Shown in pieces: positions 7,280-56,961 of a stretch of 64,000 nt of DNA (its first letter is position 1; the number at the start of each line of letters is the position of its first letter). The DNA comes from a virus. The position numbers were made by a program, and so were the translations under genes. A model generated the notes under the pieces. It made no database searches, was not told where the DNA came from, and was given only the letters and a program-made list of their open reading frames with translations. The DNA lies in the IMG/VR virus record IMGVR_UViG_3300020079_000009, one strand, 5' to 3'.

Positions 7280-8413
7280 TTAAAACAAAGACTGAACAAC
7301 AATCTTCTTTGTATAATAATTACCATAAGACAGCTCAAATTCACCACTATAAGAGCTATTCCACTTAACAAGACAAACACCTGTGCTATTTCTATCAACC
7401 TCAATGGTTACAGGATATTTAGAATCAACTTTCCAAAGGTTGCCATTATTAGGACCAATCCATCTATACTCATAAGCAATTCTTGGCTTAATAAATACGT
7501 CACCTTTAATCAATGTGTCAATGTGCTCAGGGTTTGGACTCTCCGGTACAACAACGAGGCCGCCCGCAATTCCTTTCTCTAAGTCATCTTCATCATCGTT
7601 GGCATAATACTCAACAGCTGTAATTTCTAAAATACCAGGAGTAGAAATCCAGTCTGTGGCTTCAACTCGCCAACAAATATTAGGCTCTTCTTCCATACTT
7701 CTTGATAAATAGAATTTAGAATATCTCTGAAAATATTTCAAAGATTCTGGTGTCTTAGGCATTAAAATATTCAGACTGTGGTTAGGTTCGTCTACACTAA
7801 TACCATGTTTCTGAATATAGTTAACTTTTGTTTCTACTGGACCTCGGATTGCGGCAAAGGTGTTGTGAACAACGCCATCGTCTAACCATTGAATACTCAA
7901 CGTACATTTTCTAATATCCCCTCTGAAATAGGCAAGTTCAGTAAGGTCTTGTAGATAAATTAACCAATGTGTTTGTGTTCCTTCCCACTCAAAAACGTCT
8001 CCACATCCGAAGCCCTCTTCGTATGGAATGGAAATAATTTTATCATCATAGTCTTGCTTTAATTTATTTGGGTTAATCAAAGCTCGAACTTTTCTTTTGC
8101 TTGCTGAATTCTCTACGAATCCATCTTCGCTTTCTTTTCCACTAACTTTTTTAACTGTTGCGGCTTGATATGAATACAGTAATGCTCTATCTAAAGAACG
8201 TCTTTTATCAAAGACCATTCTGTCATGTTGCGCATGACCACCATTGTATCTCAATAGTGTAGATTGATGTTGGAAGCCTTCAAGAGAAGTTTCCTCAGCC
8301 TTACCGTCTCCCTCAACGGGAATTGGTTTTTTGTCACCCAGGTTAAAAACGCCAAGGCGGCCAGCCATCAAATTTAAAGAAGTATTGCGTTTCTTATCGT
8401 CATAACTTGACAT
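7280..8413 (-). CDS. hypothetical structural protein (377 aa)
   Basis: ORF overlaps the upstream gene by 14 nt. Confidence 0.3.
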   Translation of the reverse strand: MSSYDDKKRNTSLNLMAGRLGVFNLGDKKPIPVEGDGKAEETSLEGFQHQSTLLRYNGGHAQHDRMVFDKRRSLDRALLYSYQAATVKKVSGKESEDGFVENSASKRKVRALINPNKLKQDYDDKIISIPYEEGFGCGDVFEWEGTQTHWLIYLQDLTELAYFRGDIRKCTLSIQWLDDGVVHNTFAAIRGPVETKVNYIQKHGISVDEPNHSLNILMPKTPESLKYFQRYSKFYLSRSMEEEPNICWRVEATDWISTPGILEITAVEYYANDDEDDLEKGIAGGLVVVPESPNPEHIDTLIKGDVFIKPRIAYEYRWIGPNNGNLWKVDSKYPVTIEVDRNSTGVCLVKWNSSYSGEFELSYGNYYTKKIVVQSLF

Positions 8414-27805: not shown

Positions 27806-27958
27806 GGCGCGCCGCCCACGACCCAGGCGGCACGAATTTCCATTATAACACTTCCTCAGCATTTTGTCAATAGGCAATTTGCACAAAGTTGCGAGAGGTC
27901 AAATTCCTGAAATTTGTGCATTTTGACTATTGACTTCTATTGGGGAGTGTGTTATACT
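27806..27958 (+). promoter_or_regulatory. class-3 module with divergent promoters: GC hairpin 27806-27834; antisense promoter (minus strand) -35 at 27865-27870 and -10 at 27842-27847; operator TGCACAA(27880)-N27-TTGTGCA(27920); sense promoter TTGACT(27930)-17-TATACT(27958)
   Basis: Reverse complement reads cctaTTGACAaaatgctgaggaagtgtTATAATgg, a perfect class-1 promoter firing leftward into the GC hairpin and the preceding gene terminator. Confidence 0.5.
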
Positions 27959-27964
27959 GTACTT

Positions 27965-28055
27965 ACAGATGAGGGGTGAGGTTTAATGCTGAGCCGCTCA
28001 AGCAGAAAGGGTTCAAACCCCTTGGGGGACGCCCCTAAAAGCCCCTCATCTTTTT
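27965..28055 (+). ncRNA. candidate ~90-nt small RNA (or leader with tiny ORF) from the class-3 promoter, enclosed by a long-range stem GATGAGGGG...CCCCTCATC plus U5 terminator
   Basis: The gene-less transcript begins GTCAG-type conserved start, has internal hairpins, and ends in a T-run at 28051-28055; only an in-frame run-on ORF (27986) with no independent support. Confidence 0.35.
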
Positions 28056-28144
28056 CAAAAAAAATAAAAAAAGTGCTTGACAAACGGTCAATGCGGTGCT
28101 ATAATAAAGATACAAAGAACGGAACAGAAAAGGAGACAGGAACA

Positions 28145-28633
28145 ATGACTAAGGGAAACGCAATCAGATACTACAGAAAGTTTAGTGGCGCACAGGGTTA
28201 CATCCTCGGTTTCACTTACAAGAAGAAGAACTACATGGCAATCGTTGATGAAATCATGCCTCGCTTCATTCGAGTAGAAAAAGAAGCAAGCAAAAAGGGT
28301 GGCAAGGAAAAGCTTCAGCTTCGACTGACTAATCAGCACATGGAACAGCTCATTCGCAAGGGCGCAATCGAAATCGACTACGAAGTAACCAACGGCAACA
28401 ACGGCAGAAACTTTGAAATGTGGGTACAGAGATACTTCGGTCAGGTCGCAAGAGATTGGGATAATGACGGCTTTTGGGTTGGTGGTGATGTCAATGTGAA
28501 CGGCATTGAGTATCAAATCAAATTCAACGGCGCACAGATTGTCACTTTCGACACTCTCCACAATTTGCAGAAGTGTGGCAAGGACTACAAAAACTATGTG
28601 CCTAAGCGTGGCAGAAAGAAAAAAGTTGCCTAA
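28145..28633 (+). CDS. hypothetical protein (162 aa)
   Basis: Class-1 promoter at 28078-28106, RBS AAAAGGAGA, ATG 28145 (MTKGNAIRYY...). Confidence 0.45.
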   Translation: MTKGNAIRYYRKFSGAQGYILGFTYKKKNYMAIVDEIMPRFIRVEKEASKKGGKEKLQLRLTNQHMEQLIRKGAIEIDYEVTNGNNGRNFEMWVQRYFGQVARDWDNDGFWVGGDVNVNGIEYQIKFNGAQIVTFDTLHNLQKCGKDYKNYVPKRGRKKKVA

Positions 28634-28687
28634 GGGGGTTGACAAACCCCCAAAGGTATGCTATAATAATACCAAGAGGTGAGATAA

Positions 28688-28849
28688 ATGAAAAAGAAGA
28701 AAACCATTGACAATCGCATTTTTAAGAAAGAGGGCGAAGAACTGCAACAGTATTTGCACTTTCGCAAGCGTGGGTCGGTAGTCGAGAACAAAAAGGGCAA
28801 AGGCTCGTACAATAGAAAAAAGTTCAAGAAAATTGAAAAAGACTATTGA
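28688..28849 (+). CDS. small lysine-rich protein (53 aa); 3' end overlaps the next promoter
   Basis: Promoter gGTTGACAaacccccaaaggtatgcTATAAT, RBS GAGGTGAG, ATG 28688. Not in the ORF track (<60 aa). Confidence 0.3.
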   Translation: MKKKKTIDNRIFKKEGEELQQYLHFRKRGSVVENKKGKGSYNRKKFKKIEKDY

Positions 28850-28907
28850 CAATTAAATAAAAATGTGGTATAATAATTATAGAAAATAAAGAAAAGAGGT
28901 TGTTACT

Positions 28908-29153
28908 ATGAAAATGTTTTCCGAAATGAGTTTGAAATCTATCCGCAACAAGTTGGCAAAGGTTGGGGTCACAATGAGTGACGAGCAGTTCAATGCTCTT
29001 ACCTACTCCGAGTTGAAGAAAGTCTATCGCAAGGCGAGCAAGGCTTACAAACTCTATGAGCAGGTTGATGCAATCATCACCAAAGCACAAGCTCCCACTC
29101 CGCAGATGCCCTTGACCAATGACAGTCCCAAGAGCGTAAGCGCAAAAAAGTAA
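28908..29153 (+). CDS. hypothetical protein (81 aa)
   Basis: Class-1 promoter at 28846-28875, RBS AAGAGGT. Confidence 0.4.
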   Translation: MKMFSEMSLKSIRNKLAKVGVTMSDEQFNALTYSELKKVYRKASKAYKLYEQVDAIITKAQAPTPQMPLTNDSPKSVSAKK

Positions 29154-29228
29154 AAAATGGGGGTTGACAAACCCCCAAACCTATGCTATAATACAAGTAC
29201 AAACCAAAAGAAAAGGAGAATGATACTA

Positions 29229-29381
29229 TGAGTATTCGAGAAGTAGCAAATGCACTGAATGAGATTCGCGCAAACATGAGCAACCCCGAAGGTATGGTGG
29301 TTGCGTCCATCACAAAGGACGAAGTCATTTTTGAGAATGGGGTTGCCTATTCGCTGACAACGAAGCAGAGAACGCGATAAG
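29229..29381 (+). CDS. small hypothetical protein (50 aa)
   Basis: Class-1 promoter at 29165-29192, RBS AAAGGAGA, ATG 29229; terminator at 29385-29412. Confidence 0.3.
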
Positions 29382-29429
29382 GAAGAGCGAGGGGAAACCC
29401 TCGCTTTTTCCATTTCAAAATCCAAAATG

Positions 29430-29590
29430 CATCGGCCGGTCCACGTGCGCGCGGACCGGTGTTTTGGCCTAACCTTCCATTATAACATTTTTCGAGCAAT
29501 TTGTCAATAGGCAAAATGCACAAAGATTTTCCTGTAATTTTGTGCAATTTGCCACTTGTATTTTGGTGGCTGATGTGGTATACTATTATT
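29430..29590 (+). promoter_or_regulatory. class-3 module (GC hairpin CCGGTCC..GGACCGG, antisense promoter, operator TGCACAA-N16-TTGTGCA, TGGTATACT promoter) not followed by a gene
   Basis: Same architecture as 27806-27958; downstream transcript ATTATTGTCAGTAAGGGAGAG... has no ORF before the next class-1 promoter. Confidence 0.5.
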
Positions 29591-29639: not shown

Positions 29640-29870
29640 TATTGACAAAATAAAAAAATTATGTTATAATTATTATAGAAAAAAGGAAAAAGCCATTACC
29701 AAAAAATTTCTAAAAAAGTTTTGAAAAAGGTATTGACAAATCCTAAAGAGTATGCTATAATAGTTATACAAGGTAAGGGAAAACCTACTGAGAGGTCAAC
29801 AAAAAAAATAAAAAAAAAGTTGAAAAAACCTCTTGACAAACAACTCCCAATGTGCTATAATAAGAATGTA
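29640..29870 (+). promoter_or_regulatory. three tandem class-1 promoters (TTGACAAA-N16/17-TGnTATAAT) separated by <60 nt with no intervening ORFs, upstream of paralog A1
   Basis: ttgacaaaataaaaaaattatgtTATAAT; ttgacaaatcctaaagagtatgcTATAAT; ttgacaaacaactcccaatgtgcTATAAT. Each is preceded by an AAAAAAGTTTTGAAAAAACC(T/C) UP-like element. Confidence 0.55.
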
Positions 29871-29937
29871 AAGAGGGACACCTCTTACAGAATAAAAACT
29901 TGGGTCGTGACCTACCACGAGATTGGAGATTGATACT

Positions 29938-30297
29938 ATGGCAAACACTAAGAAGATGACTAAGCGTGAGATGTTCGAGCAGATTAAGGCTTCCTACCCT
30001 CTGACTGAGGCTGAGGTTGAGTTCATTGACCACGAACTCGAACTGCTCGCAAAGAAGAACAGTGCCGAGAAGAAGCCTACCGCTGTGCAGGTGGCTAATG
30101 AGGGCATTAAGGGCGACATTGTCGCAGGTATGGAGCAGGGTAAGTCCTACACCATCACTGACCTGATGAAGACCATTCCTGCCTGTGCCGAACTGAGCAA
30201 CCAGCGTGTGTCTGCTCTTGTTCGTCAGCTCGTCACTGATGGCGTGGTTGTGCGAACTGAGGAAAAGCGTAAGGCTTATTTCTCCCTCGCTGACTAA
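29938..30297 (+). CDS. winged-helix-like protein, paralog A1 of a triplicated family
   Basis: MANTKKMTKREMFEQIK... is ~75-80% identical to the products of 33663..34022 and 34524..34883. C-terminal TITDLMK..LSNQRVSALVRQLVTDG..RTEEKRKAYFS resembles a winged HTH. Confidence 0.6.
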   Translation: MANTKKMTKREMFEQIKASYPLTEAEVEFIDHELELLAKKNSAEKKPTAVQVANEGIKGDIVAGMEQGKSYTITDLMKTIPACAELSNQRVSALVRQLVTDGVVVRTEEKRKAYFSLAD

Positions 30298-30789: not shown

Positions 30790-30970
30790 AACTTTCGCCC
30801 TAATTTTTGTGCATTTTTACCACTTGACAAATCGGGCCGGCTGTGGTATAATGGCCGCCCGTGCACAAGTGCGCGGGCCGGTATTCCTGTCAATAGTTAA
30901 TTTCAACAAAAATGCGGGCGAAAATTTGTGCAAATTGCCTATTGCAAAATCTCCCGAAACGTGGTATACT
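30790..30970 (+). promoter_or_regulatory. class-3 module with two promoters (TTGACA..TGGTATAAT inside a GGCCGGC hairpin, then TTGCAA-17-TATACT) and TGCACAA motifs
   Basis: cacTTGACAaatcgggccggctgtggTATAATggccgcccgTGCACAAgtgcgcgggccgg ... aaaatTTGTGCAaattgcctaTTGCAAaatctcccgaaacgtggTATACT. Confidence 0.5.
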
Positions 30971-30994
30971 AATAATGTCAGGAGGGATAGAACG

Positions 30995-32659: not shown

Positions 32660-32818
32660 TGTTAGAACTTATTTGTCAAATTCCTGACCACATCGGTTGG
32701 GTGCTCGTTGGTGTTGTTGGCTGTCTGTGTGTGCAGATGCTTGGTCTGTTGATTGGTACTACCATCCAGGCAATCAAGGAACGAATTGAAGACCGCAACG
32801 AGGAATGCGAGGGTTAAT
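32660..32818 (+). CDS. small membrane peptide (52 aa)
   Basis: Promoter TTGACAaaagccctcccccatggTATAAT, RBS AAAGAGGT; hydrophobic core; terminator 32806-32832. Confidence 0.3.
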
Positions 32819-32844
32819 CCCTCGCTTTTTTGTTTGAGATTTCA

Positions 32845-33000
32845 GCGCCGCGCGCACGAACGTAGCGCGCGGAATTTACCATTATACCATACCCCGGCAT
32901 TTTTGTCAAGAGAAAATGTGCACAAAGATCGAGAAATAAAAATCCTGTAATTTGTGCATTCTGTCTATTGCAATCTGCTTCTGGATGTGGTATACTATCT
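32845..33000 (+). promoter_or_regulatory. class-3 module (GC hairpin CCGCGCGC..GCGCGCGG, antisense TTGACA-17-TGGTATAAT promoter on minus strand, operator, TGGTATACT promoter)
   Basis: Reverse complement is cTTGACAaaaatgccggggtatggTATAATggtaaattccgcgcgc... Confidence 0.5.
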
Positions 33001-33099
33001 ATGTCAGGTGAGGGGAGCACCCAAGAGGAGCTCAAAAAAACTTTGAAAAAAGTTAAAAAACCTCTTGACAAATAGCGCCGAGTGTGCTATAATAAATAC

Positions 33100-33300
33100 A
33101 GAAGTTAAGGGAAGCGACCCGAAGAGGGAAGCCCACGAGAGCGATGTAAGACTTCCCCCTTGAGCCAAGGCTCTTGCTTCTGACCGCAAGGTGTTCGCGT
33201 TTGCGGTATACAAGTGTGAACCAGTGCCCCAGAGGTTGAAGTAATAGGGGATTATGCGCGATACAATACCTCACACAAAAAAGTCAAGAATCTTGAAAAA
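33100..33300 (+). ncRNA. candidate noncoding RNA 1 (~200 nt, purine-rich, GC-rich relative to flanks) transcribed from the class-1 promoter at 33065-33093
   Basis: No RBS-preceded ORF; GC ~55% versus ~38% background; multiple local hairpins (e.g. ACCGCAAGGTGTTCGCGTTTGCGGT); ends at the next promoter. Confidence 0.4.
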
Positions 33301-33340
33301 AGGTCTTGACAAATACCGCAAAGTGTGGTATAATGATTAC

Positions 33341-33560
33341 AGTCAAGAGGGGAACCTTGACAGCGAAAGCCACCAAGGACAGTGGAAACAGACACGAAGC
33401 GAACTGAAACCCAAAGGATACACGAATCCCAGTAGCCCCCACAGAGCGTGGCAAAGCGATTGCGTGGTGAGGGTAGACTTAGGGCTGGGCCAGCAACAAG
33501 GCTGAGAAGTGGGCGAGTAGCGAAGATAAGAAAAAAAGTCGCGAATTTTTTTCGAAAACC
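33341..33560 (+). ncRNA. candidate noncoding RNA 2 (~220 nt) from the class-1 promoter at 33306-33334
   Basis: Purine-rich, no plausible ORF start with RBS; ends with AAAAAAAGTCGCGAATTTTTTT near the next promoter (33563-33591). Confidence 0.4.
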
Positions 33561-33662
33561 TCTTGACAAATCAAACCCCATGTGGTATAATTAAGATGTT
33601 CCAAGAGAGGAACGAAACTTCAAAAAGGGTCGCAACCAATAGCGAGAAATGGAGACGATACT

Positions 33663-34022
33663 ATGGCAAATGTTAAGAAGATGACTAAGGCTGACTACTT
33701 CCGCCAGATTATGGCAAACTACAACCTCACTGCTGACGAAAAGGCTTTCGTTGAGCATGAGCTGGAGCTTCTGGCAAAGAAGAACTCCGCAGAGAAGAAG
33801 CCGACTGCGGTTCAGGTCGCAAATGAGGGTATCAAGGCTGACATCCTCGAAGCCATGGAGAGTGGCAAGAAGTACACCATTACTGACCTCATGAAGAGTG
33901 TCGATGCGTGCGCTGACCTCTCCAATCAGCGAGTGAGCGCACTGGTGCGCCAGCTGGTTACTGAGGGTTCTGTGGAGCGCACTGAGGAGAAGCGCAAGGC
34001 TTACTTCTCCAAGGTGGACTAA
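33663..34022 (+). CDS. winged-helix-like protein, paralog A2
   Basis: MANVKKMTKADYFRQIM... paralog of A1/A3; promoter at 33563-33591. Confidence 0.6.
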   Translation: MANVKKMTKADYFRQIMANYNLTADEKAFVEHELELLAKKNSAEKKPTAVQVANEGIKADILEAMESGKKYTITDLMKSVDACADLSNQRVSALVRQLVTEGSVERTEEKRKAYFSKVD

Positions 34023-34039: not shown

Positions 34040-34270
34040 CCCTCCCTCCCCTCTCTCAATTTTCACTTGACCCCTGGGGTGATTCGCTCCCCTGGGGGTT
34101 TTGTGCATTTTGCACAAAGCGCCGGCCCGGTCACGGCCAGCGTGACCGGAATTTTCCATTATACCACCGGCCGCAAATTTTGTCAAGAGAAAAGTTGCAC
34201 AAAAAATAAAAAATAATTTTCCTAAAATTTGTGCATTTTGACACTTGTATTTTCTCTTGGTCTGTGGTAT
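34040..34270 (+). promoter_or_regulatory. class-3 module: terminator GGGGCGCAAGCCCC, adjacent palindrome TTTGTGCAtttTGCACAAA (34108-34128), GC hairpin CCGGTCACG..CGTGACCGG, antisense promoter, operator TGCACAA-N..-TTGTGCA, TGGTATACT promoter with no downstream gene
   Basis: Near-identical to the 29430-29640 module (duplicated cassette). Confidence 0.5.
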
Positions 34271-34523
34271 ACTATTATTGTCAGTAAGGGAGAGCCGAAT
34301 TGATAGAGGTCAAAAAAAGTTTTTAAGAAATTTCAAAAAACCTCTTGACAAATCCCCCAAGATGTGCTATAATGAATACATCAAAGGGAGAGAGAAGTCA
34401 ACAGAGAGTTGAGAAAAAAAATAAAAAAACTTCAAAAAACCTCTTGACAAATCGCTCAACCTATGATATAATTAAATCATCAAAGGGAAGGAAAACCCAA
34501 CAAACCAGAAAGGAATTGATACT

Positions 34524-34883
34524 ATGGCTAATACTAAGAAGATGACTAAGAGAGAAATGTTTGAACAGATTAAGGCAAACTATGCCTTGAACGCAGACGA
34601 GATTGCGTTCATCGACCACGAGTTGGAATTGCTCGCAAAGAAAAACTCTGCTGAAAAGAAACCTACTGCTGTACAGGTTGCCAACGAAGGCATCAAGGCT
34701 GAAATCCTTGAAGGTATGGAAGTCGGCAAGAAGTACACTATCACAGATTTGATGAAGTCTGTGCCTGCGTGTGCAGAGTTGTCCAATCAGAGAGTGTCTG
34801 CCCTTGTCAGACAGTTGGTAACTGATGGCTCTGTTGAGAGAACAGAGGAAAAGAGAAAGGCTTACTTCTCCAAAGTAGCCTAA
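34524..34883 (+). CDS. winged-helix-like protein, paralog A3
   Basis: MANTKKMTKREMFEQIKANYALNADEIAFIDHELELLAKKNSAEKKPTAVQVANEGIK...; promoters at 34348-34378 and 34443-34471. Confidence 0.6.
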   Translation: MANTKKMTKREMFEQIKANYALNADEIAFIDHELELLAKKNSAEKKPTAVQVANEGIKAEILEGMEVGKKYTITDLMKSVPACAELSNQRVSALVRQLVTDGSVERTEEKRKAYFSKVA

Positions 34884-35006
34884 CTCCCCCAAGGGGGCAG
34901 AAATGCCCCCTCCCCTAAAAGGGCGGTAGAAAAAAATTTTGCAAAACCCCTTGACAGATAGCCTTAACTGTGCTATAATAAGGGTACAGTAAAGGAGTTG
35001 ATAACT

Positions 35007-36337: not shown

Positions 36338-36374
36338 AAACCTCGGATTTTTTATTTTTGTTTCAAAAAACACT

Positions 36375-36745
36375 TGACAAGTGCGCCCGGGTATGGTATA
36401 ATAATAGTAGGTAGAGCGGGCCCTGGACGGAGGCCAGGTACCGAATTTCCGATCGGTACCCCCATATGCGATTTTTTCGGTGGAAAGTGCGGCCCTTCCA
36501 TATGCGTTCAATTTCCCGTAAAACCCGGCCGCCGATCGGTTCTTGTTTTCCCGATCGGTTCGCACCATATGACCATCCTGGCCGCAAAATCTTAATTCAA
36601 AATGCCTGGTTTCGGGCTCATATCGCCGCGTTTACATCTTCTCACGAGTTTGTGTTCAGCCCGAGAAAAATTTGACATTTTGAATTAAATTTGATATAAT
36701 ATAAAAAAAGGAGTCATTGCCGATCGGGACGCGCACCGACCGCAT
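36375..36745 (+). ncRNA. candidate ~300-nt structured noncoding transcript from promoter TTGACA-N17-TGGTATAAT (36375-36403); contains three CCGATCGG and three CCATATG palindromes
   Basis: No ORF >20 codons with RBS; GC-rich; local stems (CCTGGACGGAGGCCAGG, GGTACCGAATTTCCGATCGGTACC, TTTCGGGCTC...GAGCCCGAGAAA). Confidence 0.35.
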
Positions 36746-49279: not shown

Positions 49280-49343
49280 GATTGGCGATTTGAGGGGACA
49301 GGGAAACCTGTTCCCTCTTTTTTAATTGAATAAGGAGGTTATT

Positions 49344-50750
49344 ATGTCTGGTAAAAAGATGTTTGCATTTTGGCTTGGGTGCATATGCATGTTCTTTACG
49401 ACATTGTTCCCAAGTTTGGACATTGCGTTCGCTGGGTTAAGTGGCGATGCAATTACAATGATTGGCATATTCATTGGTGCTATCATTATGTGGCTTTTTG
49501 TGGATGTAGGCTGGCCGAGCTTACTGGTGCTATTTTCATTGACGCAGTTGACTGATGTGACCATATCGATAGTAATGGCGAATTCATTGGGTAATAATAC
49601 TATTGCCTTCCTCATTTTCAGTTGCGCGCTGACATATGCGCTCTCCACGACTGGACTTTTGAGACGAATCGCATTATGGTTTGTTAATACACCAATAGCA
49701 AAGAAATCCCAATGGGCATTTGCGGCAATGTATTTCGTATCCATTTTGGTAATCGGAAGCTTCATTTCCCCGACCGTTTTATTCGTTTTATTCTTTGCTT
49801 TGGCGAAGGAAATTTACGACATTAATGGATTCCAAAAGGGCAACGCATATGCAAAGATGTTAATGATTGGTACGGCTATTATGACTTCAATATCTTGCGC
49901 GATGACTCCTATTGCTCACACCTTCCCGCTCATGGCGATTGGCTTTTATGAATCTGCGACTGAGGAAGTTATTAACTGGATTGATTATATGCTGATTGGT
50001 ATTCCAGCTGGATTGTGTGCGGCGGGGGCAACCTTTGGCGCTTTATGGTTAGGTTTTAGGAAACAAGTGGCTCATGTTCAAGTCGCTGCTTCTGAAAATA
50101 CGACTAAGATTACTCGAAAAGAGATTGTTGCTTTAATTGTTTTCTTGGTTGTTGTGGCAATGTGGATGGTCTCTGGTTTATTCCCAGATTGGCTTCCAAT
50201 ATTAAAAACTTGGACCACAACTGTTCCTCCTATGCTGGGCGTCATTGTTCTTTGTTTGTTTGGCATTTTGAAATTCAATGATGCAATGAAGAATGGCGTG
50301 CCTTGGACAGCAATTATTTTGTGTGCATCAACTCTTGCAGTTGGTAAATGGTTAACTTCTGCGGACCTCGGCATTACCGCGGCGATTGGCGAGGGTCTTG
50401 GAGCAATTATTGGTCAACCTTCAATGTTAGGTTTGATTTTTGCAATAGTATGCTTCACTGTAGTAATGACTAATTTAATGTCAAATATTGTTACGACTAC
50501 CGTTTCATATAATTTACTGACACCAATAGTAATTGCAACTGGAGTTATTTCGCCTGTTTTGTCTACTATCTTGATTGGTATGTGCGCATCAATGGCTTAT
50601 GCAACTCCACCAGCTATCGCTCATGTAGCACTTGCGGCAGGGTCTGAATATTGTGATTCCAAAGATATGTTGATATATGGTGGTATTGCAACGGTTATTT
50701 CGATTGTATTCGTTGTAGGTTTTGGATTCATATTTGGAGGTATTATATGA
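49344..50750 (+). CDS. polytopic membrane transporter (ArsB/NhaD/DASS anion-permease superfamily-like)
   Basis: RBS AAGGAGG before ATG 49344; ~12 predicted TM segments; hairpin-tip-like motifs ANSLGNNT and LMSNIVTT. Confidence 0.5.
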   Translation: MSGKKMFAFWLGCICMFFTTLFPSLDIAFAGLSGDAITMIGIFIGAIIMWLFVDVGWPSLLVLFSLTQLTDVTISIVMANSLGNNTIAFLIFSCALTYALSTTGLLRRIALWFVNTPIAKKSQWAFAAMYFVSILVIGSFISPTVLFVLFFALAKEIYDINGFQKGNAYAKMLMIGTAIMTSISCAMTPIAHTFPLMAIGFYESATEEVINWIDYMLIGIPAGLCAAGATFGALWLGFRKQVAHVQVAASENTTKITRKEIVALIVFLVVVAMWMVSGLFPDWLPILKTWTTTVPPMLGVIVLCLFGILKFNDAMKNGVPWTAIILCASTLAVGKWLTSADLGITAAIGEGLGAIIGQPSMLGLIFAIVCFTVVMTNLMSNIVTTTVSYNLLTPIVIATGVISPVLSTILIGMCASMAYATPPAIAHVALAAGSEYCDSKDMLIYGGIATVISIVFVVGFGFIFGGII

Positions 50751-55155: not shown

Positions 55156-56961
55156 ATGATGTCAGAGAATCTATTATCGAATAAATATAAAGACCGTAGT
55201 CCGATGGATACAGTCAATTTAATTAAATCATTTTTCGAGAATAGTGGATTTAAAATCGGACATACAATGTTCCAGACTGAAATTGGGACTTGGACTTGCC
55301 ATGTAACTATTTCTTCCAATAACTTAGAGGTTCTTGGTAGTAATGGCAAGGGTATGACTCAAGAATTCGCTTTGGCCAGCGGCTACAGTGAAATGTTCGA
55401 GCGTTTTTCCAATAAAGTAGGATATATTAACAATCCTTACTTCCAAAGAAAAATTAGAGCCTTGAGAGAAGACTATGTATATTGTCCAGAAGAAAAGAAG
55501 ATTGATGCTTATGATATGGTTATTGAGAATCATATTTTAGACCAATATTATAGAACATTCTTGAAATCTGATGAAAATATGAAGAAGTTCTTTGAAATCA
55601 ATTATCCTGATGGCGCAATCGGCGTTCCTTTTACAAGCGTTTCTGACCCCACAAAGGTTAAGTATTTAGACCCAAGTATTATGCAGCGTGCTACTGGTAG
55701 TAATGGTATGGCGGCTGGTAATACAGAAGAAGAAGCTTTGAATCAAGGTTTGTCCGAGCTTTTTGAGCGCAAGGGAACTGTATTATTTTATAGTCAGCCA
55801 CAAGAGCATTATCGTGCGGTTGACCTTGAAACAATTACAAGAGAAGATTTTAGAGAAGCAGTAAGTAATATCGTTAATCGAGAGTTTGATTTTATTGTTA
55901 TGGATTTATCCCATAATTTTGGCATGCCAGTATTAGCTGGTTTGTTAATTGATAAAATTGGTTGTAATTGCCGTGTAAACTTCAGTGCCTTTCCAGTTTT
56001 TGATATCGCATTTGAAAGAATTTTAACTGAGTTATATCAAGGTATTGATAATATGAGAATGTATTGCTCTGGTTTTGAAGTTCCTGCAAAAACAAATAAA
56101 GCATCTTTTGTTTTGAATTTCTATGGAAACAATTATTCTCAAGCTAATTATATTCATGATGAATTTATTACTGAAAAAGTAGAGTATGTTCCTTATGATG
56201 TTTTGGCATATGAAAGTAAAGTGTTCGTAAATCCTGATAGTACAAATGTGAATTTATTGGATTACTATAAAAAGCTCTCCAAAGATTTGGGTTATGAATT
56301 CTTTTATTATAATTGCAGTCCTATCCCAAATGAGATGGCAGCTGTTTATATTTTAGGACCAGATTTTTGTTCTATTGAACAAATTCGTGAAAAGAATGCT
56401 CGTTTCATTAGTCCTATTATTGTTCAAGCATTGCTTATAATGTTTGAAAGAATGCAAAATTTAACCTCTTTAATTTGTGACTTAACTGACCATATTGGTG
56501 ACCAAGAGTATTATGATAAGCTTTATAATGAGTATAACTTATTTAGAAACTTATCTGCTAATACAAATGATTATGAACATTTTGGCGATTTATTATTGTC
56601 AACTTATGATAGCTGTCTGTTTAATGGAGAAGGTATTTCACCAATGTTCTCTGTTGAGCAAATGTTAAATAATGGAAATAATGGTCAAATTCCAACTGTT
56701 AATCCAAAGAGTTATCTTTATGGCATCCAGAAATTATATGCTTCTATTATGGTATATAAGTGTAATGGATACAGCAATAAAGAGATTAAAGATATTTTCA
56801 AAACTTTGTTTGGTACAGAATTAACTTATCCTCAAATTGAAGATGTACCTAATATGGACATTGCATTGATGGATTGTTATTTCTATCCAACTTCTGCCTT
56901 TTACAATAGTGATATTTACGATAATATTGTAAAAGCATATTTTAGCGTAAAGGAGGAGTAA
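55156..56961 (+). CDS. YcaO-domain protein (azoline-forming cyclodehydratase / thioamidation family)
   Basis: Signature GSNGKGMTQEFALASGYSEMFERFSN matches the YcaO ATP-binding motif (GKG...A..SA..E..ER). Size 601 aa. Promoter TTGACT-18-TATAAT at 55105-55134. Confidence 0.75.
   Translation: MMSENLLSNKYKDRSPMDTVNLIKSFFENSGFKIGHTMFQTEIGTWTCHVTISSNNLEVLGSNGKGMTQEFALASGYSEMFERFSNKVGYINNPYFQRKIRALREDYVYCPEEKKIDAYDMVIENHILDQYYRTFLKSDENMKKFFEINYPDGAIGVPFTSVSDPTKVKYLDPSIMQRATGSNGMAAGNTEEEALNQGLSELFERKGTVLFYSQPQEHYRAVDLETITREDFREAVSNIVNREFDFIVMDLSHNFGMPVLAGLLIDKIGCNCRVNFSAFPVFDIAFERILTELYQGIDNMRMYCSGFEVPAKTNKASFVLNFYGNNYSQANYIHDEFITEKVEYVPYDVLAYESKVFVNPDSTNVNLLDYYKKLSKDLGYEFFYYNCSPIPNEMAAVYILGPDFCSIEQIREKNARFISPIIVQALLIMFERMQNLTSLICDLTDHIGDQEYYDKLYNEYNLFRNLSANTNDYEHFGDLLLSTYDSCLFNGEGISPMFSVEQMLNNGNNGQIPTVNPKSYLYGIQKLYASIMVYKCNGYSNKEIKDIFKTLFGTELTYPQIEDVPNMDIALMDCYFYPTSAFYNSDIYDNIVKAYFSVKEE

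Follow-up and report, generated by a model that had tools for sequence, protein, structure and literature searches.

Complex pseudoknotted RNAs with dozens of invariant nucleotides (nt) are rare in bacteria and phages, and past cases have been ribozymes, riboswitches or the cores of ribonucleoproteins. The stable RNAs C and D of phage T4 (species 1 and 2) are small, lie beside the phage transfer RNA (tRNA) genes, are matured from shared transcripts and have no known function. The put RNA of phage HK022 and the EAR element of Bacillus are promoter-proximal, cis-acting RNAs of processive antitermination that act whatever the cargo, put consisting of two simple stem-loops of ~70 nt. GOLLD is ~800 nt long. 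GOLLD and ROOL are orphan, structured, pseudoknotted RNAs often located near tRNA genes and in prophages, and ROOL, of ~580 nt, has been found in a cow rumen metagenome (PMC5737381). Here we analyse a stretch of 64,000 nt of viral DNA (IMG/VR record IMGVR_UViG_3300020079_000009; the window), in which two promoter-led segments devoid of protein-coding genes, R1 and R2, precede the small gene A2. We read R1 and R2 as two genes for structured noncoding RNAs whose product would be the folded RNA, acting through its fold, and assign this reading a probability of about 60%. GOLLD and ROOL appear to be the closest known kind to R1: like them, R1 comes from phage contigs, and several of its copies lie next to tRNA-Lys or tRNA-like genes. 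Unlike them, it measures ~165 nt, has another fold, matches neither by sequence nor by model (both are in Rfam) and sits in an early region of lytic type under its own consensus promoter. The likeness to T4 RNAs C and D is that of a phage RNA beside tRNA genes, with no homology expected; RNAs C and D are not known to have a double-pseudoknot fold or an individual promoter each. The elements of the locus are as follows.

33065-33093, plus strand: promoter P1, TTGACA, a 17-nt spacer with TGn, and TATAAT, 12 of 12 consensus positions; precedes R1
33100-33273, plus strand: R1 RNA, whose 5' domain is a three-way junction and whose 3' domain contains two interleaved pseudoknots
33306-33334, plus strand: promoter P2, 12 of 12 consensus positions with extended -10 TG; precedes R2
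33341-33530, plus strand: R2 RNA, a long imperfect rod behind a 5' hairpin, with eight distinct relatives
33563-33591, plus strand: promoter P3, 12 of 12 consensus positions with extended -10 TG; proximal to gene A2
33598-34022, plus strand: A2 messenger RNA (mRNA), gene A2 behind a leader of 65 nt that has a 5' hairpin
33663-34022, plus strand: gene A2, 119 amino acids (aa), one of three paralogues in the window (A1 at 29938, A3 at 34524)
34127-34149, plus strand: first terminator-like hairpin downstream of promoters P1, P2 and P3 in a terminator scan, after A2

A preliminary description of this DNA had placed perfect promoters at 33065, 33306 and 33563, and all three are indeed 12-of-12 matches of sigma-70 type with an extended -10 TG. 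Most plus-strand promoters of the surrounding early region stand 14-33 nt ahead of a Shine-Dalgarno (SD) sequence and start codon; the leaders running from promoters P1 and P2 to A2, at 563 and 322 nt, are outliers by this measure. The -10 hexamer before R1 ends at 33093 and the RNA model begins at 33096-33100, and transcription from promoter P1 would start at about 33099-33101. Also in keeping with the description, both segments are purine-rich and raised in GC content (R1, 51.7% GC and 57% purine; R2, 55% and 67%; window average, 39.8% and 51%), and no SD-preceded open reading frame (ORF) of at least 35 aa stands between promoter P1 or P2 and the start of A2 at 33663. R1 and R2 have no similarity to each other or to the rest of the window, as DNA or translated (blastn, tblastx). 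Read from the sequence, the promoters, the absence of coding, the conservation, the secondary structure and the stand-alone units among relatives support R1 and R2 as noncoding RNA elements.

Searching viral contigs with the A2 protein yielded 38 loci of large uncultivated phages, whose contigs reach several hundred kilobases (kb). In these loci the R1 core recurs at 90-93% identity (blastn), each time after a consensus promoter, and the A proteins of the same R1-bearing loci are only 62-71% identical. Degenerate DNA patterns drawn from the core led to 17 viral, 70 metagenome and 7 metagenome-assembled-genome loci, and the family, from uncultivated gut and rumen phage contigs, comprises at least 89 distinct copies among 98 covariance-model matches. 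The model was built from 72 distinct full-length copies aligned over 166 positions; on the window it finds one copy, at 33096-33273 (127.6 bits, E 1.2e-27, model positions 1-166), which is itself part of the seed alignment, and the second-best score in the window is 9.3 bits. Family members are 159-177 nt long, with length differences that are not multiples of three, and ~45 alignment columns are invariant, many of them outside helices, in junctions. Single phages can hold several diverged copies, some in tandem (R1-R1). Two copies comprise the 5' domain only (locus L088, 1042-1160; locus L100, 3472-3568), with helices P1-P4, CCACGAGAG and GUAAGAC and no pseudoknot domain, which suggests that the 5' domain may be an independent module.

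A consensus promoter ends 2-8 nt before R1 in 74 of the 83 copies with enough upstream sequence. Downstream sequence of at least 120 nt is available for 78 distinct copies, and 14 of them have an intrinsic terminator ahead of any further promoter, in 10 cases no more than 30 nt away; such terminator-closed copies are complete promoter-RNA-terminator genes. A tRNA-type T-arm occurs within 160 nt downstream in 9 of the 78. The loci and the window together contain 15 tRNAs, of which 11 are tRNA-Lys(UUU); the other four include two ARAGORN calls without a set identity and two distant tRNAs of the window. tRNA-Lys(UUU) genes lie 5-190 nt downstream of several R1 copies, and as close as 5-18 nt in loci L073, L132 and L104. 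A gene A homologue stands ~150 nt downstream in 36 of 90 R1 units, and behind it there is usually a counterpart of the gene at 34998, which encodes a 125-aa protein.

Other elements were seen in the same downstream position, and these regions look like islands of unannotated RNAs. tRNA-like genes directly follow R1 in L085 (3951-4027) and L122 (274-347), as well as in L074 and L090; ARAGORN calls four-base anticodons (cgag, gagc) for two such genes, and others, undetected by ARAGORN, have acceptor and T arms without a normal anticodon arm. A conserved noncoding motif of ~70 nt, CCUUGG-UGG..CUAAC..-CCAAGG, follows R1 in L042 (1925-1995), L069, L068 and L096, and a second one, starting CACACAACGGCCGGGA, does so in L107, L110, L091 and L075. 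In L014 (2690-2900), a promoter-flanked noncoding element of ~210 nt that our searches scored as neither R1 nor R2 lies between R1 and gene A.

The fold of R1 was derived by comparison across the family, and its elements in the window copy are these.

33100-33181, plus strand: R1 5' domain, within the window's match to the R1 model; helices P1, P2 and P4 covary across the family
33100-33104 with 33177-33181, plus strand: helix P1, closing the 5' domain
33107-33114 with 33152-33161, plus strand: helix P2, leading to the junction with hairpins P3 and P4
33118-33120 with 33126-33128, plus strand: hairpin P3
33131-33132 with 33141-33142, plus strand: hairpin P4, with the conserved 8-nt loop CCACGAGA at 33133-33140
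33146-33152, plus strand: conserved GUAAGAC, after P4
33162-33173, plus strand: extra hairpin specific to this copy
33183-33273, plus strand: R1 3' domain, two interleaved pseudoknots, coordinates read from the sequence
33184-33190 with 33200-33206, plus strand: hairpin P5
33195-33199 with 33257-33261, plus strand: pseudoknot P6, the P5 loop with a downstream strand, UCGCG/CGCGA in the window
33227-33230 with 33247-33250, plus strand: hairpin P7
33232-33236 with 33268-33272, plus strand: pseudoknot P8, the P7 loop with the 3' tail

In a scan of all column pairs, a six-pair helix stands out that joins a hairpin loop to a segment 60 nt downstream, with up to five pair types per position. The five pairs of pseudoknot P6 are 99.5% paired and every one of them has changed on both sides across the family; column pair 148/240, for example, reads CG in 39 sequences, AU in 26, GC in 14 and UA in 4. 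In the model-derived alignment (alignment A2), 85.0% of the cells of the 23 nested pairs are paired, compared with 62.9 +/- 0.7 in shuffles, 22 of the 23 pairs have changed on both sides, and the covariation score is 0.472 against 0.155 in shuffles and at most 0.08 with partners slid. Two sequence classes were misaligned at the 3' strand of P7 and at the P8 tail, by MAFFT as well as in the first covariance-model alignment; we corrected this register by rule and report both versions. After correction, the 36 pairs that include both pseudoknots are 91.0% paired (72.5 +/- 0.5 in shuffles, 27-46% slid), 27 of them have changed on both sides (20.6 in shuffles, 10-15 slid), and P7 and P8 covary as well. 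On this evidence, at least six R1 helices are kept by compensatory changes. Between helices P1 and P2, 44 of 79 copies fit the pattern GGnGA-GGG / CCC-nnn-GA-nCC of a putative kink-turn; a kink-turn joins a helix, a 3-nt bulge, tandem sheared G.A/A.G pairs and a second helix. The window copy, with a plain 5-base-pair (bp) helix P1 and its extra hairpin, falls outside this pattern.

R2 and the repeat that follows it are laid out thus.

33347-33350 with 33355-33358, plus strand: 5' hairpin, enclosing the SD-like GAGG
33371-33373 with 33509-33511 and 33380-33383 with 33501-33504, plus strand: rod helices
between 33384-33397 and 33487-33500, plus strand: conserved internal loop of ~14 by 13 nt
33398-33400 with 33484-33486 and 33404-33407 with 33479-33482, plus strand: rod helices
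33409-33412 with 33471-33474 and 33417-33421 with 33464-33468, plus strand: rod helices
33531-33561, plus strand: A/T-rich inverted repeat around GTCGCGAA, between R2 and the -35 of promoter P3

R2 relatives are found in a subset of the related loci, always in the order promoter, ~195 nt, A/T-rich repeat, next promoter. The exact R2 pattern occurs among viral contigs only in the window's own, and a gapped pattern added few loci. Over the eight distinct sequences, 90.6% of the cells of the consensus fold are paired (80.6 +/- 1.4 in shuffles), and 15 of 35 pairs have changed on both sides (8.2 in shuffles, 1-7 slid). The window copy has the lower two-thirds of the rod; conservation does not extend to the apical part. 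Every R2 relative keeps the inverted repeat, as AAAATAGTCGCGAATATTTT..GAAAACCTCTTGACA, and it may serve as an UP element or form a weak hairpin. The structural evidence for R2 is weaker than that for R1. The covariation analysis in related phages that the preliminary description had called for reveals compensatory base-pair changes in both.

The Rfam comparison proposed at the same time finds no family for R1, R2 or their relatives. The 4227 covariance models of Rfam 15, applied to the window at the gathering threshold, return two tRNAs only (62281 and 63802), and over 32800-33700 at E <= 10 they give scattered matches at chance level, of at most 22 bits and far below threshold. On 26 related loci (14 + 12) they return tRNAs, one U7 small nuclear RNA match and, in a scan at E <= 1, three chance matches below threshold; the U7 match (38.9 bits, threshold 34) lies at 11704-11767 of L095, apart from the R1 copy at 8204-8368. 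No tRNA, transfer-messenger RNA or RNase P is found at 33065-33660 by ARAGORN or by Rfam models, and the hammerhead, hepatitis delta virus (HDV)-like, twister, pistol, hatchet, glmS and RNase P models have no match over 32800-33700 at E <= 10. A DNA comparison with 50,697 GenBank phage records detects no relative of R1 or R2, the matches being one of 55 nt at the promoter region and a chance one of 27 nt in a Streptococcus phage terminase gene. A full-text literature search with six diagnostic strings brought up unrelated polymerase chain reaction primers only; the catalogue of 10,006 unnamed viral RNA motifs of at most 151 nt in PMC10690425 stood outside this comparison. Within the databases covered, R1 represents a sizeable family of complex double-pseudoknot phage RNAs absent from Rfam 15, and R2 a smaller second one.

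Several known RNAs were considered and set aside. The core of the hammerhead ribozyme is CUGAnGA...GAAA, and the CUGAAGA-like string of R1 is not conserved, reading CUGAAAA or UUGAAGU in many members. HDV folds as a nested double pseudoknot, P1-P2-P3-P1.1-P4; the 3' helices of R1 come in the order P5, P6, P5', P7, P8, P7', P6', P8', which differs from the HDV fold, and R1 lacks the P3 hairpin of HDV. Likeness to hammerhead, HDV, RNase P and T-box RNAs was dropped on these counts, namely strings that are not conserved, a different helix order and no model match. A riboswitch was rejected for R1 too, what lies downstream being variable (promoter, terminator, tRNA, noncoding motifs, gene A) and no alternative terminator/antiterminator pairing being seen. 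The prohead RNA of the Phi29 family resembles R1 in being ~170 nt long and made from a strong early promoter by host polymerase; it is a single-copy RNA of 20-kb podoviruses, whereas R1 is multi-copy, on big contigs and differently folded, and the Rfam prohead RNA model has no match to the region.

If R1 and R2 are genes for structured RNAs, host RNA polymerase with its primary sigma factor would start at promoters P1 and P2 straight after infection, and each nascent RNA, its 5' end set by the transcription start, would fold. In R1, two hairpin loops would pair with downstream segments and the last pseudoknot would tuck in the 3' tail; R2 would form its 5' hairpin and a long imperfect rod with the conserved internal loop. 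Both would accumulate as abundant early RNAs, and their tertiary structure would act on a macromolecular partner, a protein or a tRNA, in host take-over or counter-defence. In other members of the family, an intrinsic terminator or the 5' end of a neighbouring tRNA sets the 3' end of R1; in the window, where nothing does so, 3' ends would arise by processing, or the RNAs would stay attached to nested A2 transcripts as their 5' domains. Going beyond the folds, we infer that both segments are transcribed, that the RNAs are stable and act in trans, and what kind of partner they have. The best lead to function is the association with tRNA-Lys and with a strongly promoted small protein that may bind DNA; tRNA-Lys(UUU) is both a target and an antidote in tRNA-directed immunity, and phage tRNA-Lys is a known antidote to immunity that cleaves tRNA-Lys (PMC11464382). 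Here two RNAs of complex fold lie side by side, each with a defined promoter, and R1 offers more than 70 distinct full-length relatives, a testable double-pseudoknot fold and, as recurrent neighbours, tRNA-Lys(UUU) and a very highly promoted, putative small winged-helix protein, which makes its function directly approachable. The RNAs would add to early phage-host conflict an RNA layer that gene-centred annotation misses.

A number of points weigh against R1 and R2 as RNA genes. In 43 of the 78 copies, as in the window, the next consensus promoter follows R1 without a terminator, an arrangement that fits a leader role equally well. A scan of 33094-33660 finds no terminator-like site; the hairpin at 34127-34149 is the likely 3' end of read-through transcripts. 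Single-sequence folding energies of R1 and R2 are no better than those of shuffles (z = -0.57 and -0.24), so that the structure is visible only by comparison with relatives, and the earlier statement that the segments are rich in local hairpins finds no support in such folding. The P7 and P8 registers were adjusted by hand to maximise pairing, hairpin P4 has 2 bp only in the window copy, and the sequences are related, so the shuffle controls overstate significance. The R2 fold comes from eight sequences and was derived from the same alignment that served for the pair counts. The case for action in trans comes from the gene layout. Of the two promoter-driven noncoding transcripts first proposed, the noncoding nature is upheld and reinforced, the relatives keeping the promoter-RNA layout, having no ORF and carrying compensatory changes; their existence as discrete ~200-nt species in the window does not follow, for want of a terminator. 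Among the functions suggested then, 'sRNAs' (small RNAs) comes closest in spirit, with the difference that these RNAs are large and highly structured and not short antisense regulators, and 'cis-regulatory decoys' is not favoured for R1, some members of which are promoter-RNA-terminator units.

The strongest competitor, which we nonetheless consider unlikely, makes R1 and R2 cis-acting leader elements: the nascent RNA would act on its own transcript or polymerase, by antitermination in the manner of put and EAR, or would stabilise or regulate the cargo A2. R1 always begins at the transcription start, the cargo varies (gene A, tRNA, noncoding elements) in a way typical of antitermination elements and not of riboswitches, 43 of the 78 copies, the window's included, run into the next unit with no terminator between, and gene A comes next in 36 of 90 units. 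SD-like polypurine 5' stabilisers are described for mRNAs of B. subtilis and phage SP82 (PMC7509114, citing Hue et al. 1995), and all early transcripts of this region open with a purine-rich SD-like stretch or a hairpin; the R1, R2 and A leaders carry such strings (AAGGGAAG, AAGAGGGG and AAGAGAGG, respectively) within a few nucleotides of the start. Such stabilisers could, however, cover only the first ~15 nt and not the conserved structure of at least 150 nt in R1 and R2, and an RNA of 165 nt with ~45 invariant positions far exceeds known 5' stabilisers in complexity. R1 is likewise far more complex than put. The 14 terminator-closed copies leave nothing downstream to act on, a strong promoter usually stands between R1 and the next gene and makes the cargo independent of read-through, tandem R1-R1 arrangements exist, and pseudoknot P8 builds the 3' tail into the fold, as expected of a released RNA. 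We prefer a stand-alone product to a purely cis-acting leader because some relatives are terminator-closed and because the 3' tail is part of the fold.

A bolder version of the RNA-gene reading, which we consider quite unlikely, would make R1 a new class of catalytic or tRNA-directed RNA and, together with it, R2 a 6S-like sponge of primary-sigma polymerase that ends the early phase. R1 might then, for example, be a decoy or shield against host nucleases that target tRNA-Lys, or bind tRNA-Lys(UUU) through its invariant UGAAR..AAU loop. R2 resembles 6S RNA in being a largely double-stranded rod of ~190 nt with a sizeable conserved internal loop and in belonging to a genome that relies entirely on primary-sigma promoters for its early programme. 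It differs in having its 5' 30 nt and 3' 20 nt outside the rod, with no closing stem, and a poorly conserved apical half, and the 6S model does not match R2 even at E <= 10 over 32800-33700. If a tRNA-directed R1 and a 6S-like R2 were borne out, the two would be RNA-only effectors of host take-over or counter-defence, of a kind undescribed for phages.

That R1 is instead a self-processing RNA, either a new self-cleaving ribozyme or a cis-acting element for tRNA 5'-end maturation that cuts polycistronic early transcripts and frees the adjoining tRNA or RNA, strikes us as improbable. Its complex pseudoknotted fold with many invariant unpaired nucleotides, the tRNA-Lys(UUU) or tRNA-like genes 5-18 nt after several copies and the lack of a terminator in most copies would suit such a role. 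Yet only a minority of copies adjoin a tRNA, the promoter already sets the 5' end, and the ribozyme comparisons given above are negative: no Rfam ribozyme or RNase P model matches at E <= 10, the CUGAnGA-like string is not conserved and the helix order is unlike that of HDV.

Still further down, we give very little credence to the idea that the segments have no function and are spacers or remnants of coding sequence, separating redundant tandem promoters that would serve to boost A2 or soak up host polymerase. Tandem promoters are indeed a feature in themselves, since A1 and A3 have three and two perfect ones, 62-71 nt apart (29642-29861 and 34345-34472), in addition to a TATACT-type promoter upstream; stacked promoters are therefore common to all three A genes, with or without RNA inserts. 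The equivalent places in the A1 and A3 cassettes hold short promoter spacers and not, as had been stated, protein genes; only the cassette at 27838-29475 has genes in that position. Folding energy at the level of shuffles would also suit a spacer. Against it stand the identity of the R1 core, higher than that of the accompanying A proteins, the occurrence of R1 away from gene A, beside tRNAs or terminators, and the compensatory changes, which contradict it. Nor do 'degenerated genes still transcribed' fit segments with no similarity to coding sequence in the window, no conserved frame and insertions or deletions that are not multiples of three.

Finally, that the region encodes small proteins is barely credible and was rejected, because the frames are not conserved. 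ORFs do exist: one of 83 aa (33254-33505), which is not the only one, contrary to the first description, a 16-aa ORF starting with TTG at 33357, 4 nt after the SD-like AAGAGGGG of R2, and minus-strand ORFs of 73 and 109 aa, one minus-strand frame being free of stops. The 83-aa frame is interrupted by stops in R2 homologues, and its ATG at 33254 lies in a conserved RNA segment, UAUGC, which has become UACGC in much of the R1 family; the TTG is CTC in most R2 relatives; and an open minus-strand frame occurs among R1 relatives in all three phases, long frames on that strand being due to pyrimidine-rich composition. No reading frame on either strand is conserved among the relatives of R1 or R2, and the length differences of the family have already been noted. 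Within R1, a start-stop pair ATG TAA occurs at 33144-33149; its TAA belongs to the conserved GUAAGAC and its ATG is not kept among relatives, so the pair is a coincidence.

The window is part of a tailed-phage genome that encodes a portal protein and a terminase-like protein. The best cultured relatives of the portal protein are those of the gut Phage Phass-1 (38% identity) and of 140-kb Enterococcus phages (~30%), and a host of Bacillota type is therefore likely. The extended promoter pattern CTTGACAAA-N12-TGnTATAAT has 43 matches in the window, compared with 0.53 expected by chance, and most of them lie in a dense early region at ~22.4-36.7 kb that looks like the host take-over region of a Bacillota phage. 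Gene A, which finds only weak winged-helix matches and no solid family, encodes a putative small winged-helix DNA-binding protein. Just before its SD sequence there is a hairpin (window 29903-29937, in the A1 leader; L010 2958-2990; also L095, L105 and L064) that covaries among loci as UCGUG/CACGA, UUGCG/CGCAA and UCGCG/CGCGA and may act as a translational operator; in a further class of A leaders its place is taken by CGAC-AGGUUCAA-GUCG.

The cassettes are bordered by a module found at 27838-27958, 29475-29584, 32877-32996 and 34154-34273, which contains a perfect promoter on the minus strand, TTGTGCA/TGCACAA inverted repeats and a TGnTATACT promoter on the plus strand; a related segment at 30853-30994 has 132 nhmmer matches in related loci. 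A perfect promoter at 36374-36402 is followed by ~270 nt (to 36670) of ~50% GC without an SD-preceded ORF. This stretch, 36374-36670, is conserved in L064, L019/L020/L033 and L042 (nhmmer E down to 1e-28) and is probably another noncoding RNA of the early region. Outside that region, the window encodes a YcaO cyclodehydratase (55156-56961; Pfam E 1.7e-30) and a protein resembling sodium/sulfate or citrate-type transporters (49326-50750), an unusual cargo for a phage.

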